From Candidatus Iainarchaeum sp. (GTDB taxonomy: Archaea > Iainarchaeota > Iainarchaeia > Iainarchaeales > GCA-2688035), in assembly GCA_028713935.1 (NCBI GenBank), contig JAQTNI010000003.1, positions 17,391-49,390 on the forward strand: a DNA stretch of 32,000 nucleotides. The letters are read 5' to 3'. The first letter of the stretch is position 1. The number at the start of each line of letters is the position of its first letter. Below, piece after piece: positions 7,915 to 25,337 of this stretch. Position numbers and translations under genes: made by a program. The notes under the pieces were generated by a model that saw nothing but the letters and a program-made list of their open reading frames with translations, made no database searches and was not told the DNA's origin.

Positions 7915-9000
7915 TTGATTTATTCAGGAGAACATTGCATAGGGGAATTTTTTTCTTGCCCAAAAAAAAATTTAAATAACAAGAAAAAAATAGAAAACCT
8001 GCTTATTACAGGAATAAAAAAATTCGGCCTAACACTTATAGGAATCCACACCCACCAATTTAAGCCATTTGGCCTAACCTCAATAGCAATTATTGGCGAA
8101 TCGCATATTGCTATACATACTTACCCTGAAAATGGGCGTGCCTCCATTGATATTTATACCTGCTCTGAAAAATCAGAAATTCCATTAAAGTTGCTGCAAT
8201 TTTTTAAATGCAAGCTAAAGCCGCAATCAGTAAAAAAAATTTTGGTTTGTAGGGGGAATAGGCTCCAAGTAAAGAATGGCGATTGGGTTGCTGATTCTTC
8301 TTGCCCTGATTTTACCGTAAAATATAAAGTCAAGAAAAAACTTTTTAGCAAAAAATCTAAGCATCAGCAAATAGATATTATTGAAAATAATGCCTTTGGC
8401 AGAATGCTATTTTTGGACAATGATTTGCAAATAGCTGAGAGAGGGTTTGCAAATTATAATAAAGCTCTGATTTCTCCATTAATCAAAGCAAAAAATAAGC
8501 TGAGCAAAATACTCATACTGGGCGGAGGAGACGGCGCACTTGCAGCAGAGCTCTTGAAACATAATCCAAAAAAGGTTACTATTGTAGATATTGATGAAGA
8601 AGTTATTAATGCATCAAAAAAAATTTTGCAAAAAATAAACAAAAATTGTTTTAATGACCAGAGAGTAAAAATCATAATTGATGATGCATGCAGATTCTTA
8701 GAGAAAGAACATAGCTTTGATGCAATCATATGTGATTTAACTATGCATCCTGAAATTTTTTCGAAAAAGAAAAGAGGAGCCTATTTCCATGAAATCTTTT
8801 CAAACATAAATAAAAAATTAACTGCGAATGGGATGATAACAATGCAATTGTGCGCAGAAAATGATATCAATACTTTTAAAATTATAAGCAAATTATTATC
8901 AAAATACTTCGCAGGTATTCAATTCACAAAACAATTTATCCCGGCATATCTACAAAATTGGGTTTTTGTTTCTGCAAAACAAACAGAAAAAAACATTTGA
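7915..9000 (+). CDS. Fusion of pyruvoyl-dependent S-adenosylmethionine decarboxylase (SpeH/SpeD class 1) and a spermidine-synthase-like aminopropyltransferase
   Basis: The N-terminal ~115 aa contain IIGESHIAIHTYPENGRASIDIYTC (ES self-cleavage site and HT(W/Y)PE motif). The C-terminal part contains FGRMLFLDNDLQ, ILILGGGDGALAAELLKH, VTIVDIDEEVI and RVKIIIDDA (SpeE fold). TTG start at 7915 is forced: the in-frame stop is at 7897-7899, there is no ATG before the conserved N-terminus, and an SD aggag lies at 7902-7906. Confidence 0.75.
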   Translation: MIYSGEHCIGEFFSCPKKNLNNKKKIENLLITGIKKFGLTLIGIHTHQFKPFGLTSIAIIGESHIAIHTYPENGRASIDIYTCSEKSEIPLKLLQFFKCKLKPQSVKKILVCRGNRLQVKNGDWVADSSCPDFTVKYKVKKKLFSKKSKHQQIDIIENNAFGRMLFLDNDLQIAERGFANYNKALISPLIKAKNKLSKILILGGGDGALAAELLKHNPKKVTIVDIDEEVINASKKILQKINKNCFNDQRVKIIIDDACRFLEKEHSFDAIICDLTMHPEIFSKKKRGAYFHEIFSNINKKLTANGMITMQLCAENDINTFKIISKLLSKYFAGIQFTKQFIPAYLQNWVFVSAKQTEKNI

Positions 9001-12122: not shown

Positions 12123-14975
12123 TCAGCTGTAATTCTGGGATTCTTCTGTTATTGTAACATCGTGGGGATGGCTTTCGCGAAGCCCTGCAAGCGTTATTCT
12201 GCGCCATTTTGTTTTTAACCTGAGGTCATCAATTGTACCTGCCCCAACCATTCCCATTCCGCTTCTTAAGCCTCCAAGAAGCTGGAAAGACACTTCGCCT
12301 ATTGTGCCCTTGAATGGGACAACTCCTTCAATGCCTTCGGGGACAAGTTTTGCTTCTTCTGCCTTGTCCTGGAAATACCTGTCTGTTACATCGGAGTCTT
12401 TTCTTTCTGTCATTGCCCCAAGCGAGCCCATTCCCCTGTATTGCTTGAGTTTTCTTCCGCCAAAAAAAATCATTCTGCCGGGTGTTTCCTCGCAGCCAGC
12501 AAAAAGCTTTCCAACCATTACGCTGCTTGCGCCTGCTGCTATTGCCTTTACAATGTCTCCTGAATACCTTATGCCGCCGTCTGCAATTATTGGGCAATTG
12601 TGCTTTTCAGCCGCTTCTGCGCATTCTGCTATTGCAGAGAACTGCGGAACTCCTACGCCTGCAATGATTCTTGTGGTGCAATTGTGCACTGCCAAGCGAT
12701 TTGCAACATAAGAATTGTCTTCCTCAACTTCCAAGTTATAAACATTCATGTCCACCTGCTGTTCTTTTACGGAGTCAATTGAAAAATAAATATAGTTGCT
12801 GTCAGACCAAGATTGTTGTTTTTTTGTAATAGTTTCCAATGGCTTTGCATCAAGGCCAAGATCTTTCAAAAATGAATCATATTGCTTTCCAGATACTCCA
12901 AGAATATAAGTGTCTGCCCAATTCTGGTTCTTTGGCTTATGGAGCCCCAAGGAAGGCAAATAGCCCAATCTGGAAATGATTTCCGTAATCTGGAATGCCA
13001 GAGAGGGGGAGGTTGTTTTATATCTCAATCGCCCTGCCTCTGTAAGGCAGCCGTCACCATTTATTGCCCCAACCAAAAAAGATTTTAGAAGGGTAGAATC
13101 TTGGTTTAAAACAAGCTCGGGGGCCTTTTTGTTGTTCGCGCCAAGCACGAATAAAGATTCAAAAAAACCAGCAATAATATTTGAAAACACATGCACAGTT
13201 GCACTATTCCTTTTACTGCTGAATATTACTTTCGATTTGGAATAGCCAAAAACTGTTTCAACCAGCTTTATTATTTCTGAATGGTATTCTTTTTCTTCTG
13301 CAGAAAATGCGAAGCAGAGCTGCCTGTTGTTGGCATTTCCCATTACATAGCCTTCTGCCGCAAAGTATCCAAACAGTTTCATTAGATTCGCATCCAGAGA
13401 AACAAACCTGTTTATTTTGTTTGGCTCAATTTCGCGGGAATAACTGGTTTCATTCAAATAAAAATTGATTTCCTGATTCAGCTGCATGTCAAAAGATTTT
13501 CTGCCATGGACAATGTTTGCAACTATTCTCGGCGTTGTGGAAAATTTTTCAGCAAGCACCGGGAATGACTCCTTGTTCTGGTTAAAACCAATTTTGCCAG
13601 CCCAAATTTTTGCATTATCCCATTCATAATTCGGAAAAAATTCTAAAAGGTCAAAAGTAATTCCTGGGCCTTCAATTTGCCTTGATTCTGCTTTTGGAAC
13701 AGCAACAATATCTTCCGGCTCCAGGAGCCCGGCCGGAATCCAGGACAAACCCTTATTATGCTTGCCTTTCCCAAAAAAATATTTTGCACCAAATTTCTTT
13801 TTCTTATCCACGGGGTAAAAAAAATGCATCCCATAAACAGGGTGATTCGGAGTTATAAATAATTCGCCTGGAGTTCCGCCGGTTTTTATTTTAAGCATTT
13901 TCCCCTTGTGCCTGCGAACATATTTTTTTGTTACCATTCGAGACCTGCCCCTGTGAGTGATAACAAAATCGCCAACTGCTATGTCCGCTATTGGCTTTAC
14001 AGAATAATCTGCCATCAAAACTTGCGCATTCCCATCAAGGCATATGCTTCCCGGCCCAATTCCCACTTTTATTGCGTCTGCTCCCGCTGAAATCAGGTCT
14101 TCTGTTGCCTCTGCTGTTGCAACATTTCCCGCAACAACCTGAATTTCAAATTCTTTTTTGATTTTTTTTAATGCATCAATTACAATTTTGTTATGGCCAT
14201 GGGCAGTGTCAAGGACTATTGCATCAACTTCTGCTTCAACAAGTTTTTTTGCGCGTTCAAATTCTTTCTGGCTTGGCCCTACTGCTGCGCCTACCAAAAG
14301 CCTGCCCTGCTTGTCTTTCAGGGCAAGGGGAAATTTTTCTTTTTTTTGGATGTCTCCTGCAGTAATCAGGCCTTTGAGCCTGCCATCTGAATCCACAATT
14401 GGCAATTTTTCTATTTTGTGCTTGTGGAGTATCTGCTTTGCCTCTTCTGTTGAAACAAATTTGTCAACTGTTACAAGGTTTTTTGTCATGATTTCTGAGA
14501 CCTTTTTTTGAGGGTTATTCTCTAACCACAAATCCCTCTGGGTTACTATGCCGACAAGCCTGTTGTTTTTGTCAAGCACTGGGAAGCTTCCGATGCCGCT
14601 GCTTTTCATCAGGCCCCTTATTTTTGAAAGGGAATCATTTTCAAGAAGCGTGACAGGATTTTGCACTATCCAGAATTCAGAGCGCTTTACTTTTGCGGCT
14701 TCTTCGGCCTGTTTTTCAGGGGGCATGTTGCGGTGGATTATTCCAATTCCGCCCTGCCTTGCAATCGCAATTGCTGCTTTGCTTTCAGTGACAGTGTCCA
14801 TTGCGGCTGAAACAATTGGGATATTGAGAAAAAGTTTTTTTGTAAACCTGGTTTTAAGGTCTGCGTCTTTTGGCAGCACATCTGATGCAGCCGGAACAAG
14901 AAGAATATCATCAAAACTCAGGGCAATTTCCGGAAGGGAGAGTTTTGTTTTCATGATTAATTTGCTTTCAATCAT
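12123..14975 (-). CDS. guaB: IMP dehydrogenase precursor containing an intein
   Basis: [21 protein letters not shown], a CBS pair region (about aa 100-210), and the active-site loop GIGPGSI / CTTR split by a 454-aa insert. The C-terminus has [12 protein letters not shown]. Exteins total 496 aa. An alternative start at ATG 14954 (MKTKLSLPE) would place the TTTTAAAA box ~24 nt upstream. Confidence 0.9.
12681..14042 (-). mobile_element. Class-1 intein with LAGLIDADG homing-endonuclease domain (454 aa)
   Basis: Codons checked on the sequence. gga agc ata TGC (Cys1 at 14042-14040) follows GPGSI, and cac aat (HN, Asn at 12683-12681) precedes TGC (+1 Cys at 12680-12678). Block B is TPNH. The LAGLIDADG motifs are [14 protein letters not shown] (13344-13385) and [15 protein letters not shown] (13044-13088). 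Block F is [15 protein letters not shown] and block G is RLAVHN/C. Confidence 0.87.
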
Positions 14976-19598: not shown

Positions 19599-20399
19599 TC
19601 ACTTAAAATATTCAACTGCATTCCGGAATATTCTCATTCCTTCGCTTTCATCAGGCAGGCTTTTTCCTTCGCGTTTCAGTTTTTCTTTCTGGAGCAACCA
19701 GCCATTCTGCTGCGTAAAAAGAATATTTCTTTCAGGATGGGGCATTAAGCCGAAAACCCTTCCCGTTTCATTGCAGATGCCTGCAATGTCTTCCAATGCG
19801 CCATTCGGATTTGCAGGGAATCTGCCTTTTGCCAATGCGCCTTTTTCATTGGCATACCTGAAAACAACCTGCGAGTTTTCATTCAGCTTTTCAAGGACGT
19901 TTTTTTCCGCAAAAAATTTTCCCTCGCCATGCGCAACAGGCAGGCGAATTGTTTCAATGCCTTTTGTGAAAACGCATTTTTTTGAAAATGCCTTCAGGTA
20001 AACCCATCTGCATTCATAGCGCGCGGAATTGTTGCGCATTAACGCGATTTTTCTTTCACCGAAGCACTTTTCAAAGCCCGGAACAAGGCCGAGGTTTGCA
20101 ATTGCCTGAAAGCCGTTGCAGATTCCAATTACAAGATTTTCAGCTTCAATAAATTTCTCAATGGCAGGCCAGATATTGCTCTTGATTTTGTTTGCAAGCG
20201 CATTTCCCGAACCAGTGTCATCGCCATAAGAAAATCCGCCTGGAAAAGCAAGAATCCGGAATTCACTGAGTTTTTGAGGGGCTGCTATCAGGTCATTTAT
20301 ATGCACAATTTCTGTTTCCGCGCCTGCTTTCCTGAAAGCAAAGGCTGTTTCTTCCTCGCAGTTTATTCCATAACCACTTAGAACAATTGCTTTCACCAT
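19599..20399 (-). CDS. purQ: FGAM synthase glutaminase subunit
   Basis: Class I amidotransferase: VIGICNGFQ (nucleophile Cys) and GLMPHPER (His). ATG at 20399 overlaps the purL stop by 1 nt (TGATG); the ORF-track TTG is at 20402. Confidence 0.9.
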   Translation of the reverse strand: MVKAIVLSGYGINCEEETAFAFRKAGAETEIVHINDLIAAPQKLSEFRILAFPGGFSYGDDTGSGNALANKIKSNIWPAIEKFIEAENLVIGICNGFQAIANLGLVPGFEKCFGERKIALMRNNSARYECRWVYLKAFSKKCVFTKGIETIRLPVAHGEGKFFAEKNVLEKLNENSQVVFRYANEKGALAKGRFPANPNGALEDIAGICNETGRVFGLMPHPERNILFTQQNGWLLQKEKLKREGKSLPDESEGMRIFRNAVEYFK

Positions 20400-23368
20400 C
20401 AATAACCCTCAAAAGTTTTTTTATAGGAATTTTCAAGTTTTTTAATTGGAATGAAAAATTTTTTTGTTCCAACAGGCTTTATAACAAGCCCTTTTTTTGC
20501 AATAACTTTTCCTATTTCCGCAAAAGAATTGCCATTCATAATTCTCTCAAATTCCTTCTTGTTTTTTTTGCTTAGTGTTGCAACAATCCTGCCCTGTGAT
20601 TCTGAAAACAAGAGTTCGTCATTCCTGAGTTTTTCTGCAGGCAGTTTTTGCAGTGAAATTTCCATGCCAAGCTGCGAGGCAATGCAGATTTTTGCAACTG
20701 CGATTCCAATTCCTCCCAAGCCTACTGGCTGGCAGCTTGCAACAAGCCCTTTTTCAATTGCATTGCTTAAAGCCGAATACAATTTTTTTGATTTTTCAGA
20801 ATCAACTTTTGGAGCATTTTTCCCTAAAAATTTTTTTCCTGAAAGCTTTTCCCCCATAAAGGAAAGGTATTCGCTTGCGCCAAGCTCGTTTTTGGTTTCC
20901 CCAAGCGCAAAGACAATATCCCCGGAAAATTTTGCGTCCATTGAAACGCATTTTTCGGAATTTTCAATTTTTGCAAGGGAACTTATCAACAGTGTGGGAG
21001 GAACTGAAATTTTTATTGGATTGTTGTTTTCATCATATCCTTTAAAATCATTGAACATGCTGTCTTTTCCTGAAATAAATGGGGTTTCAAATGCAACTGC
21101 AAAATCAAAGCAGGCCTGTGCAGCCTGTTTCAATTGCCAGAGCCTTTCGGGTTCATTGCTGCTGCACCAGCAAAAATTGTCAAGCAATGCAATTTCTTCA
21201 GGATTTGCGCCAATGCAGACAAGGTTCTTGATTGCTGAGTCAATTGCGCAGGCAGCCATCCAGTAACAGTCAATGTCACCGTAAGAAGGGTAAAGCGCAT
21301 GGGAAATTCCAAGGCAAAGCTTTGAATCAAGCAATGGCCTTACTGCGGTTGCATCTGCATTCACTCTTCCTTTTCCCTGCAATGGCTTGAGAACAGAACT
21401 GCCCTGCACTTCATGATCGTATTGTGCTGAAACAAATTCCCTGCTGCAGATATTCTGCCTTGAAAGCATTTTACAGATTGCATCTTCAAGGCAGGGCTCT
21501 TCAAATTTTGTGCTTTCCTGGATTTGTGTTTTTGTTTCTGAAAAAAGCCTTTTTTTTGGCAGGCCATTGTGCAGGAATTCCAAATCAATGTCCATTATTG
21601 TTTCGCCATTGTTTTTTACAATGCACTTTCCCGAATCAGTGAATTCCCCTATTACTGCGACTTCAACTCCCCTTTTCCGCATCAAATCCAAAAATTTTTC
21701 AAGGTTTTCCTTTGGAATTGCAAAAGTCATTCTTTCCTGGCTTTCAGAAATCCAGATTTGCCATGGCTGCATTCCGGGATATTTTAAGGGAACTTTTTCA
21801 ATTCCTACAACACAGCCATTGCATTCTTTTGCCATTTCAGCAACTGAACAGCTTAATCCTCCTGCTCCATTGTCTGTTATGCTGCTGTATAATTCCATCT
21901 GCCTTGCTTCCTTGATTATTGCATCGCTCATTTTTTTTTGCGTAATCGGGTCGCCGATCTGGACTGCTGTTGCAGGGCTTCCGGAAGAAAGTGCTTCGGA
22001 AGAAAAAGTCGCTCCGTGAATCCCGTCAAGCCCAACCCTGCCACCAGCCATTACTATCAAATCACCGGGCATTGCTGATTTTTCAGAAGAGCTTTTCCCG
22101 TTTATCTGCCTTGGAATCAGGCCAATTGTGCCGACAAAAACAAGGGGCTTTCCCTTGTATCTTTCGTCAAAAAACATAAAGCCCTGCGTGGTTGGAATTC
22201 CGGAGCAGTTGCCGCCTGAATTCACTCCTTCAATTACCCCAAGCATTATTTTTTCTGGCGAAAGCATTTTGCTTGACTTGTTTTTTCCCTTGTACAAAGG
22301 CCTTGAATCAAAAGGAGAGGCAAAGCAAAAGCCATACCTGTTCACAATTGGCTTTGCGCCTTTTCCAAATCCAATCGCATCCCTGTTAACGCCAACAATG
22401 CCCGTAATTGCGCCCCCGAATGGGTCAAGCGCGCTCGGGCTGTTATGGGTTTCAACCTTGTCTGTTACCAACCATTCTTTTCCAAATTCAATTGCACCTG
22501 AATTGTCAAGAAAAACAGAAACACAATTGTCCTTGCTGCCTTTTTTTTGCCTGATTATGTCAGTTGCCTTTTTTATTTTTTCCTTAAAAATGCCTTGTTT
22601 TATTTCATCAAGCTCTGCGGAAAAAATCGTGTGCTTGCAGTGCTCGCTCCATGTTTGTGCAAGGCTTTCAATTTCAATGTCAGTCGGTTTTCTCCCAAGT
22701 TTTGCAAAAAAATCCCTTATTGCCTTCATTGATTCAAGGTCAAGAGCAAGCGGGCCTCTTCTAGTGCCTGTGCCAGTATCAAGTATGCCTTCCTTGCCTA
22801 TTTTTGCAAGCTCTTCATCGCTTAGATTCAAATCAATTTTTTTTGCTTCAGCTGCATTGCCAAGCCTTACAACTGGCGCAATCACATCCATTCCTTTTTC
22901 CTTGAGGAATTGTTCCCTGCTTTTTATGTGGATTCTCTGGATAAGGGGATTTGCAAAGCCAAGCGCGATTTTTTCTGCTTCCTCTTTGCTTAAAGCGCCT
23001 TTCAAAAAAAGTTCCTGTGAAGAATAAACCCGCGCAGAAATCTTCCTTTGCCTTGCAGCAAAAAAATCCGTGATAAGCTCTGTTGCAGTGTTGCCAATAT
23101 TGTCAGTCACTCCTGGAAGAAAGCCAATTTCAATGCACCAGCTAAAATCATTTCCAGGGGAGTCTCCCAAAAAAGCTTTTTGTGAAACAGGGTTATGCAA
23201 AAGCCCTGGCAATTCAAGCATTTCAGAATCATTCAAATCAGATTCAATTGTGTAAACATCAGCAATCTTCAAATTTTCAGCCTTAAAGCCCATTGAAGCA
23301 AGCTGCTTTTTTTTAATTGCTTCCCTTGCATCGCTGCCAGTGTTTACGGCTATCCTCGCTAACCCCAT
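20399..23368 (-). CDS. purL: FGAM synthase synthetase subunit with fused PurS-like N-terminal domain (989 aa)
   Basis: AQTWSEHCKHTIF at aa 238-249, then duplicated PurM-like domains (DNGAGGLS, GDPITQKK, ISGKDSMFN). About 175 extra N-terminal residues contain FLPGVTDNIGNTATELI and FANPLIQRIHI, matching PurS and the large-PurL N-domain (GV.DP.G..a, LLaNPvIE). Confidence 0.9.
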   Translation of the reverse strand: MGLARIAVNTGSDAREAIKKKQLASMGFKAENLKIADVYTIESDLNDSEMLELPGLLHNPVSQKAFLGDSPGNDFSWCIEIGFLPGVTDNIGNTATELITDFFAARQRKISARVYSSQELFLKGALSKEEAEKIALGFANPLIQRIHIKSREQFLKEKGMDVIAPVVRLGNAAEAKKIDLNLSDEELAKIGKEGILDTGTGTRRGPLALDLESMKAIRDFFAKLGRKPTDIEIESLAQTWSEHCKHTIFSAELDEIKQGIFKEKIKKATDIIRQKKGSKDNCVSVFLDNSGAIEFGKEWLVTDKVETHNSPSALDPFGGAITGIVGVNRDAIGFGKGAKPIVNRYGFCFASPFDSRPLYKGKNKSSKMLSPEKIMLGVIEGVNSGGNCSGIPTTQGFMFFDERYKGKPLVFVGTIGLIPRQINGKSSSEKSAMPGDLIVMAGGRVGLDGIHGATFSSEALSSGSPATAVQIGDPITQKKMSDAIIKEARQMELYSSITDNGAGGLSCSVAEMAKECNGCVVGIEKVPLKYPGMQPWQIWISESQERMTFAIPKENLEKFLDLMRKRGVEVAVIGEFTDSGKCIVKNNGETIMDIDLEFLHNGLPKKRLFSETKTQIQESTKFEEPCLEDAICKMLSRQNICSREFVSAQYDHEVQGSSVLKPLQGKGRVNADATAVRPLLDSKLCLGISHALYPSYGDIDCYWMAACAIDSAIKNLVCIGANPEEIALLDNFCWCSSNEPERLWQLKQAAQACFDFAVAFETPFISGKDSMFNDFKGYDENNNPIKISVPPTLLISSLAKIENSEKCVSMDAKFSGDIVFALGETKNELGASEYLSFMGEKLSGKKFLGKNAPKVDSEKSKKLYSALSNAIEKGLVASCQPVGLGGIGIAVAKICIASQLGMEISLQKLPAEKLRNDELLFSESQGRIVATLSKKNKKEFERIMNGNSFAEIGKVIAKKGLVIKPVGTKKFFIPIKKLENSYKKTFEGY

Positions 23369-24518: not shown

Positions 24519-25337
24519 ATGGGTAAAGATGTTCTTGCTGTTTTTGGCTCTGCTTCAGATTCAAATGTTTTTGAAGCACTGATGCTTTCCCTCAGGGAAA
24601 AAAAGATTTCTTCTGAATTGAGGATTTGCTCTGCTCACAGAACTCCAAAGGAACTTGAGCGCATTGTTTCTGAAACAAGTGCAAAAATAATAATTGCAGG
24701 TGCGGGATTGAGCGCTGCTTTGCCTGGCGCTATTGCCTCAAAAACAACAAAGCCAGTGATTGGAATTCCGATTGAAAACAATTATTCGGGTTTGGATGCA
24801 TTGCTTTCAGTGCACCAGATGCCCCCCGGAATCCCTGTTTTGGGAGTTGGGGTTAATGCAGCTGAAGAAGCTGCGCTTGCTGCGAAGCTTGCGCTGCAAA
24901 GGCATGATTCAATAAAAATAATAAAAAATTTTTATTCTGAAAAATTTGAAAAAAAATTTGTTTCCCTTACTGGGCTGCTCGGGGAATTAAATGCAAAATT
25001 TGAAATTGCGGAAAAAGCTGGAAAAATAAGGGAGAATGAAGTTGCAATTAATTTTGTTGGCCTGGATTTGGGCGAGGGAATTGCTTTGAAAGCCGGGCTT
25101 GCAATTAATGTGCCTTTGCTTGAAAAAGACTCTGCAGAAGATGCAAAACTGCTCCTGCAAAAAACAGGAAAGGGATTATGGGTTGGCCTGAACAGGCTTG
25201 AAAATGCGGGAATTGCTGCTGCTGAATTGCTTGCGATTTCAGATGAAAAAATCCTGCAAAAGCTTGCGGGGCAGAGAAAAGCGGGGGCAGAAAAGGTTGT
25301 TTCTTCTGATGCAGAACAATCAAAAAAATGGAATTGA
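24519..25337 (+). CDS. purE: N5-CAIR mutase / AIR carboxylase (PurE) with a degenerate C-terminal half-repeat
   Basis: LAVFGSASDS, CSAHRTP, IIIAGAGLSAALPG, PVIGIPI, HQMPPGIPVLGVGV (aa 1 to about 135), followed by ~135 extra aa. The tail of the extra part, GLWVGLNRLENAGIAAAELLAISDEKILQKLAGQRK, mirrors the canonical PurE C-terminal beta-alpha unit. Confidence 0.8.
   Translation: MGKDVLAVFGSASDSNVFEALMLSLREKKISSELRICSAHRTPKELERIVSETSAKIIIAGAGLSAALPGAIASKTTKPVIGIPIENNYSGLDALLSVHQMPPGIPVLGVGVNAAEEAALAAKLALQRHDSIKIIKNFYSEKFEKKFVSLTGLLGELNAKFEIAEKAGKIRENEVAINFVGLDLGEGIALKAGLAINVPLLEKDSAEDAKLLLQKTGKGLWVGLNRLENAGIAAAELLAISDEKILQKLAGQRKAGAEKVVSSDAEQSKKWN

Follow-up and report, generated by a model that had tools for sequence, protein, structure and literature searches.

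How can an enzyme accommodate a domain of 454 residues at the very cysteine on which its catalysis depends? The question is raised by the guaB gene, encoding inosine monophosphate dehydrogenase (IMPDH), in a 32,000-nucleotide stretch of a Candidatus Iainarchaeum sp. genome (contig JAQTNI010000003.1, positions 17,391 to 49,390; hereafter the window). The gene lies at positions 12123–14975 on the minus strand, as do all of its features described below, and its open reading frame (ORF) of 950 amino acids plus stop contains both IMPDH and the insert, as seen from its translation and from matches to IMPDH profiles; the true start may be the methionine at residue 8. An earlier note on this DNA had placed an intein at 12681–14042 within this ORF, and its coordinates are confirmed here to the base. 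In our view the insert is, with high probability (about 0.88), a canonical class-1 intein whose constitutive splicing produces active IMPDH and whose LAGLIDADG domain still works, or worked until recently, as a homing endonuclease on the empty guaB site.

The anatomy of the precursor is clear from the way in which IMPDH profiles align to it. Both PF00478 (495 bits, Pfam) and TIGR01302 (NCBIfam; 570.5 bits, above the equivalog cut-off of 481.5 even with the insert still present) match in two pieces, breaking at residues 312/313 and resuming at 765/766. The N-extein (residues 1–311, positions 14043–14975) comprises the N-terminal part of the IMPDH barrel (Pfam IMPDH, residues 18–313) together with a pair of CBS domains (both detected in Pfam), as is also apparent from alignment to Thermotoga maritima IMPDH (1vrd), and it closes with the residues KVGIGPGSI. 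The C-extein (residues 766–950, positions 12126–12680) continues through the IMPDH C-terminus according to profile matches and alignment. Between them, the junctions, domain models and a fold match delimit the intein (residues 312–765, positions 12681–14042), with an N-terminal junction reading KVGIGPGSI/CLDGNAQVL and a C-terminal junction preceded by ANRLAVHN (slashes mark junctions). Deleting the insert in silico produces an IMPDH of 496 residues that aligns to 1vrd with 569 bits and without a gap through GPGSICTTR, and a 104-residue segment across the junction is also free of gaps against dozens of solved IMPDHs. The earlier proposal that the insert sits exactly at the catalytic cysteine, together with its suggested comparison with intein-less IMPDH, is thus borne out, and the placement of the insert along with the motifs quoted for it lies far beyond chance.

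Three codons define the chemistry at these junctions. The first intein residue, Cys1 (precursor residue 312, codon TGC, 14040–14042), is the nucleophile of the first splicing step, read from the junction and invariant across the family described below; the terminal intein residue is an asparagine (residue 765, codon 12681–12683); and the first C-extein residue, Cys+1 (residue 766, codon TGC, 12678–12680), is the nucleophile of the second step. In Pseudomonas aeruginosa IMPDH, the catalytic cysteine that forms the covalent E-XMP intermediate is Cys304, located on the loop spanning residues 297–315 (PMC3606566), and our junction reading and alignments place Cys+1 at the equivalent position of the GSICTTR motif. 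Since Cys+1 is the sole cysteine of the IMPDH active-site loop, the +1 splicing nucleophile and the catalytic nucleophile of the host enzyme are, on the evidence of these alignments, one and the same residue. Ribonucleotide reductase (RNR) sets a precedent, as the commonest intein site in that enzyme lies directly N-terminal to its thiyl-radical cysteine (PMC2677866). In both cases, Cys+1 is a catalytic cysteine of an enzyme of nucleotide metabolism, whereas the RNR residue acts as a radical and that of IMPDH forms a covalent E-XMP* thioimidate, and the inteins themselves are unrelated. The guaB locus is a clear-cut natural example of a +1 splicing nucleophile that doubles as the catalytic nucleophile of its host.

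The splicing (Hint) domain is divided into two halves. Its N-terminal half (intein residues 1–75, positions 13818–14042), outlined by domain models and the family alignment, contains block A as well as block B, which reads TPNH (residues 64–67, positions 13842–13853) and whose Thr64 and His67 are invariant in the family, just as Cys1 is invariant at every N-terminal junction recovered. The C-terminal half (residues 401–454, positions 12681–12842), recognised by TIGR01443 and by motif positions, contains block F (residues 434–448, positions 12699–12743) and block G, RLAVHN (residues 449–454, positions 12681–12698), ending in His453–Asn454; both blocks were assigned from motif positions. Three domain models score above their cut-offs on the insert, namely LAGLIDADG_3 (PF14528, 39.4 bits against 22.5), intein_Cterm (TIGR01443, 20.8 against 15.6) and, barely, the Pfam Vint/Hint model (27.7 against 27). 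All of the class-1 hallmarks listed in the earlier note (Cys1, TPNH, two LAGLIDADG motifs with their acidic residues, the terminal HN and Cys+1) are present, supporting the assignment of the insert as a class-1 intein with a nested LAGLIDADG endonuclease.

That endonuclease domain occupies intein residues 206–400 (positions 12843–13427), as indicated by PF14528, a sequence match to the intein endonuclease PI-PkoII and a fold match to I-DmoI. Its two LAGLIDADG motifs, located by motif search and PF14528, span residues 220–233 (positions 13344–13385, with the acidic residue Glu230) and positions 13044–13091 (with Asp330), and both of these catalytic acidic residues persist throughout almost the whole family, the window copy included. 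The closest sequence relative of known structure is PI-PkoII (2cw7, E 8e-9). Structure prediction of the intein with AlphaFold2, using a six-sequence family alignment as input, gave a model with a mean predicted local distance difference test (pLDDT) score of 77.7 and a predicted template modelling (pTM) score of 0.73. Foldseek matched this model to PI-PkoII (E 3e-17), TliVMA (7qsu, 9e-17), PI-SceI (1.5e-13) and PI-PfuI (1e-9), so the predicted structure, as modelled, has the Hint fold of these inteins. In the same predicted model, the endonuclease core resembles I-DmoI (TMt about 0.75), with a pseudo-dimeric alpha-beta-beta-alpha-beta-beta-alpha fold as in I-DmoI and I-Tsp061I (TMt 0.61–0.76, root-mean-square deviation (rmsd) 3.1–4.6 Å).

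Between the Hint N-terminal half and the endonuclease lies a middle module (intein residues 76–205, positions 13428–13817), apparent from family conservation and from a separate sub-model, which finds no Pfam match even at E 10. Modelled alone, it reaches a pLDDT of 86, and it contains a conserved three-helix unit resembling a helix-turn-helix (HTH), LAEKFxTTPRVIGxIV (residues 160–180, positions 13503–13565). Foldseek matched the module to nothing but the HTH headpieces of LacI, CcpA and PurR, with about 2 Å rmsd over about 47 residues, a non-significant match (E ≥0.16); tentatively, the module may be an additional DNA-recognition region of the homing endonuclease. Overall, the intein shares with PI-PkoII (2cw7), TliVMA and PhoVMA (7qsu, 7qss, 7qst), PI-SceI (1vde, 1lws) and PI-PfuI (1dq3) a Hint domain into which a two-motif LAGLIDADG endonuclease is inserted, along with accessory DNA-binding elements, with fold matches at E about 1e-17 to 1e-9. 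Unlike it, these solved inteins reside in DNA polymerase, VMA ATPase or RNR and are only 11–16% identical to it in sequence, and the HTH-like middle module of the window intein has no sequence-family match.

By homology to characterised class-1 inteins, we infer the following course of splicing. After translation of the 950-residue precursor, Cys1 would carry out an N-to-S acyl shift aided by Thr64 and His67 of block B, and the resulting thioester would be attacked by Cys+1, the future catalytic thiol of IMPDH, giving a branched intermediate. Cyclisation of Asn454, with help from His453, would then release the intein, and a final S-to-N shift would leave a normal Ile-Cys peptide bond in a 496-residue IMPDH with an intact loop. 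The unspliced precursor is very probably inactive, because a 50-kDa domain would sit inside the mobile active-site loop, and the host would thus depend on efficient, constitutive splicing. The excised intein would probably act as a homing endonuclease that cuts intein-free guaB at the highly conserved sequence GGnCCnGGnAGyATh/TGyACnACnmG, after which the intein would be copied in through recombinational repair. Homing at such a conserved site would explain the patchy, cross-domain distribution of the element.

That distribution emerged from a scan of 185,579 GTDB species representatives with the family alignment, in which 28 carry an intein at the identical guaB site (L001–L028). These inteins are 39–56% identical to the window intein over all 454 residues, their junctions all conform to GPG[SAT]I/C...HN/C[TI]TR, and all are free of internal stops. 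A further 22 loci, again all at the identical site, were found in JGI metagenome contigs; across the 50 loci, every complete junction has the form C1...HN/C+1, there are no internal stops, and the full-length copies are all open. Hosts include uncultured and DPANN archaea (Ca. Iainarchaeum), Heimdallarchaeota, numerous Pyrinomonadaceae/Acidobacteriota, Bacillota, Oscillochloris (Chloroflexota), Polyangiaceae (Myxococcota) and Poribacteria. One intein-bearing bin is labelled Heliobacteriaceae, but its intein groups with those of Acidobacteriota, making the label doubtful. Among proteins, a word-indexed search returned just seven IMPDH-hosted relatives (42–57% identity), followed by inteins of about 25% identity in unrelated hosts. 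An exhaustive HMMER search of 1.84 billion cluster representatives returned only five members of the clade (P0157–P0159, P0007 and P0162), all at the identical site; complete copies score at least 380 bits, and the hits that follow, generic multi-intein proteins, about 200 bits. The allele is thus rare, though not unique, with about 50 public loci, and public records name the intein-bearing proteins plainly as IMP dehydrogenase. One of these proteins (P0158, 812 residues) appears to lack the CBS subdomain, placing the allele in CBS-less variants of the enzyme as well.

The closest relatives of the window guaB have no intein. The nearest IMPDH orthologues of its exteins are intein-free proteins of 485–488 residues (P0037, 76% identical, and P0038, 74%), and a partial Ca. 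Iainarchaeum IMPDH that is 80% identical is also among the closest. Two contigs (L054 and L055) share the gene order of the window, with neighbouring proteins 59–82% identical and guaB exteins 74–76% identical, and their guaB genes contain an intact empty site that differs from the fused site of the window at synonymous positions only; in L054 the site consists of GGGCCAGGAAGTATA followed directly by TGCACAACCAGGATAATT. Judging from these alignments, intein-free syntenic relatives of this kind are what would be expected of a mobile element. In a single JGI metagenome sample (3300004210, Ga0066639), intein-bearing (L074/L077) and intein-free (L056) guaB contigs of related archaea occur together, and this sample could be a natural setting where ongoing homing might be sought.

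Several observations weigh against our reading of the insert. Three Hint-related models, Intein_splicing (PF14890), Hom_end_hint (PF05203) and intein_Nterm (TIGR01445), match it below their curated cut-offs (29.3 bits against 35.8 for PF14890 and 18.6 against 24.5 for TIGR01445). The final 12 residues of the intein model have pLDDT values below 50. IMG/VR viral contigs contained no IMPDH-hosted relative, only distant inteins in other genes (at most 32% identity), leaving no close viral copy there to account for transfer between domains. Pairwise dN/dS ratios between family members that are 75–85% identical (Nei-Gojobori method) do indicate purifying selection, in favour of our reading, at 0.07–0.13 over the whole intein and 0.05–0.13 over the endonuclease domain, but the values are approximate given that dS is about 1 or above and near saturation. 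These ratios cover other members of the family and not the window copy, whose nearest relative is just 56% identical. Finally, position 4 of block F, usually an aspartate that helps with splicing steps 1 and 2 (PMC10663303), is an asparagine in the window intein (Asn436, in VYNLEV), a departure from the class-1 pattern.

This last point is best read as a trait of the clade. The asparagine at F:4 never varies in the IMPDH intein family, and all 28 related inteins from other host proteins (P0009–P0036) have it too; as far as these alignments go, it is therefore a lineage character and not decay, and the F:4 residue is not strictly defining. The 28 inteins from other hosts, which include glycosyltransferases, UDP-glucose dehydrogenase and DNA methyltransferases, are about 25% identical overall, yet have a near-identical C-terminal block that ends in VHNC and carries Asn at F:4. 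They came from the word-indexed search, whose selection bias explains part of this C-terminal similarity, and point tentatively to an extensive intein clade whose C-terminal splicing half is very conserved.

Among the rival explanations, the one that fares best holds that the intein still splices but is an immobile passenger, its endonuclease no longer cutting, and that it is maintained solely because an imprecise deletion from the catalytic loop of an essential enzyme would be lethal. Signs of long vertical residence favour this view. Within Acidobacteriota, intein and extein divergence go hand in hand (Spearman 0.82 over all pairs); a crude tree built by the unweighted pair group method with arithmetic mean (UPGMA) separates an archaeal clade including the window intein, an Acidobacteriota clade and a mixed bacterial clade; and intein GC content tracks that of the host from 0.30 to 0.65. 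The window intein itself has a GC content of 0.396 and a third-position GC content (GC3) of 0.385, both matching the window values, and recent acquisition, which we considered, was rejected on these grounds, only its synonymous-codon fit being slightly low (0.093, the lowest of 16 genes, against 0.12–0.24 for the others; a weak test). Together, the divergence correlation, the UPGMA clades and the GC values suggest mostly vertical descent with rare transfers, and long residence over recent arrival. Some endonucleases are also clearly damaged while their splice junctions are intact: a Poribacteria metagenome-assembled genome (L027, 1570–2727) lacks the equivalent of intein residues 247–349, and in P0159 the GDG of LAGLIDADG motif 2 reads GND. 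Such degenerate copies, interpreted from their sequences, would be consistent with the cycle of invasion, fixation and decay of homing elements.

Several lines of evidence nevertheless make a dead endonuclease in the window unlikely. Neither the window copy nor, with few exceptions, any other member has lost the catalytic acidic residues, and purifying selection on the endonuclease domain equals that on the splicing domain (omega 0.05–0.13), which would be unexpected if the domain were dead; the closest relatives of the window, moreover, lack the intein. Mean column identity is likewise even over the Hint, middle and endonuclease segments (0.60–0.66). Of 105 positions that are near-invariant in the family, the window copy departs at only three (G71, N288 and V299), none of them catalytic; other members depart at 0–6. 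We therefore favour an intein whose endonuclease is, or recently was, active in homing.

A second alternative, raised by the cysteines at both junctions, is that the intein acts as a conditional switch on guanosine monophosphate (GMP) synthesis, with a Cys1–Cys+1 disulfide, or occupancy of the active site, holding the precursor unspliced. Cys1/Cys+1 pairing is common among inteins, and in this case the host active site leaves no choice but cysteine at +1, so that the pairing carries no specific signal. Redox-trapped inteins have been documented elsewhere, for instance in MoaA of Pyrococcus abyssi (reviewed in PMC10663303), and like them the window intein has cysteine nucleophiles that are oxidisable in principle. 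Those inteins, in contrast, have a specific extra cysteine or a demonstrated disulfide, while the window intein has only its obligatory Cys1 and Cys+1; in the family alignment, neither the intein nor the flanking extein residues contain an additional conserved cysteine or a CxxC-like motif. The long retention of the allele under purifying selection fits a switch, but its hosts, with anaerobic DPANN archaea at one end and aerobic soil Acidobacteriota at the other, have no common ecology, and on balance we find this alternative very unlikely.

A still bolder version, to which we give marginally less credence, is that the host has co-opted the intein as a post-translational gate, in which oxidation of Cys+1 or Cys1, or a ligand in the half-formed active site, delays splicing and so couples GMP production to redox or purine status; if true, the benefit to the host could explain why purifying selection is so strong on the entire element, including its endonuclease, across Archaea and Bacteria. 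That the insert is a non-splicing element in a guaB pseudogene, or an assembly chimera, is effectively excluded by a frame open over 2,850 nucleotides, by fully conserved exteins that exceed the TIGR01302 equivalog cut-off despite the insert, by the intact set of splicing residues, by the location of the gene inside an otherwise intact purine operon cluster and by the same architecture having been assembled independently in about 50 genomes and metagenomes.

The intein at this position also has to be set against what is known of inteins in IMPDH. The enzyme joined the list of intein hosts in 2009, with the report of the naturally split IMPDH-1 and IMPDH-2 from marine and freshwater metagenomes, GOS and phage data among them (PMC2677866), whose halves are separated by a free-standing Vsr-like endonuclease (Dassa et al. 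2009, PMC2677866) and which use Ser+1 (PMC11766414, PMC11168065). They share with the window intein the IMPDH host, the active-site loop and class-1 chemistry with Cys1. Using as a search probe only what we take to be the IMPDH-1 N-intein, we recovered four IMG/VR loci at 86–95% identity (L137–L140), with junctions reading RVGIGGG/CFVPG...VHN/SICSTR, two codons upstream of the insertion point in the window. The split allele thus resides in viral contigs at GIGGG/SICSTR with Ser+1, while the window intein is contiguous, lies at GPGSI/CTTR with Cys+1 and belongs to a family not found among the IMG/VR contigs. Since the two sites are two codons apart and the inteins share only generic similarity in the Hint blocks (BLASTP E 0.003), they are, on this comparison of sequences, independent invasions of adjacent positions in one loop.

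The earlier note had suggested that the IMPDH insertion site may be rare or new. Its rarity holds, and so does the distinctness of the insertion point. Our literature search found no paper on a contiguous LAGLIDADG intein at the IMPDH catalytic cysteine, only work on the split IMPDH-1/-2 inteins and their use in engineering, and IMPDH goes unmentioned in the main text of the Novikova 2016 survey of inteins; the host as such, however, has been known since 2009 (PMC2677866). The insertion point is thus rare and apparently undescribed, and the element itself an ordinary selfish intein. In the same IMG/VR search, a large LAGLIDADG intein was seen in an apparent DNA polymerase III alpha/PHP-type protein on a 459-kb viral contig (L141, 2308–4932; 3300023179_000009), which surfaced solely through the resemblance of its block A to that of IMPDH-1.

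The finding leaves the current understanding of inteins unchanged. With it, IMPDH has two independent intein insertion points, the second lying two codons from that of the phage split inteins, which strengthens the rule that the targets of intein homing in nucleotide-metabolism enzymes are their most conserved catalytic loops. Because the family keeps its endonuclease across DPANN archaea, Asgard archaea and no fewer than five bacterial phyla, it offers a usable data set for studying cross-domain transfer and long persistence. A contiguous Cys1/Cys+1 intein with the native junction GSI/CTT could interest protein engineers, and the predicted LAGLIDADG enzyme, which probably recognises a near-universal guaB sequence, could interest developers of meganucleases.

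The guaB gene is part of a purine and one-carbon supercluster that fills nearly all of the window (positions 462–29445) and encodes purD, purN, folD, guaB, purA, purH, purM, purQ, purL, purE, purC, purB, glyA and a 5-formyltetrahydrofolate (5-FTHF) cyclo-ligase, together with an energy-coupling factor (ECF)/ATP-binding cassette (ABC) transporter and a class-Ib aminoacyl-tRNA synthetase. Homology is closest to Diapherotrites/Iainarchaeum (DPANN) archaea. A full de novo purine pathway in a DPANN-type genome is noteworthy, because many DPANN lack one. Scans of the window for tRNA and Rfam families found no RNA genes.

Three further ORFs in the window have unusual architectures. PurL (20399–23368, minus strand, 989 residues) matches TIGR01736 only from residue 211 onwards, and its relative on L054 (999 residues) has a similar form; the N-terminal extension of about 200 residues matches no family and could be a fused PurS-like region. 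A second intein in the window, for which this long PurL was a candidate, was rejected, as the protein has only AIRS/PurL domains besides the unmatched extension. A 272-residue ORF (24519–25337, plus strand) has a PurE domain at residues 5–132 only, followed by about 140 unmatched residues, and its L054 equivalent has 288 residues. In a single 361-residue ORF at 7915–9000 (plus strand), the S-adenosylmethionine (AdoMet) decarboxylase SpeD (residues 3–114) is fused to the spermidine synthase SpeE (residues 121–356).

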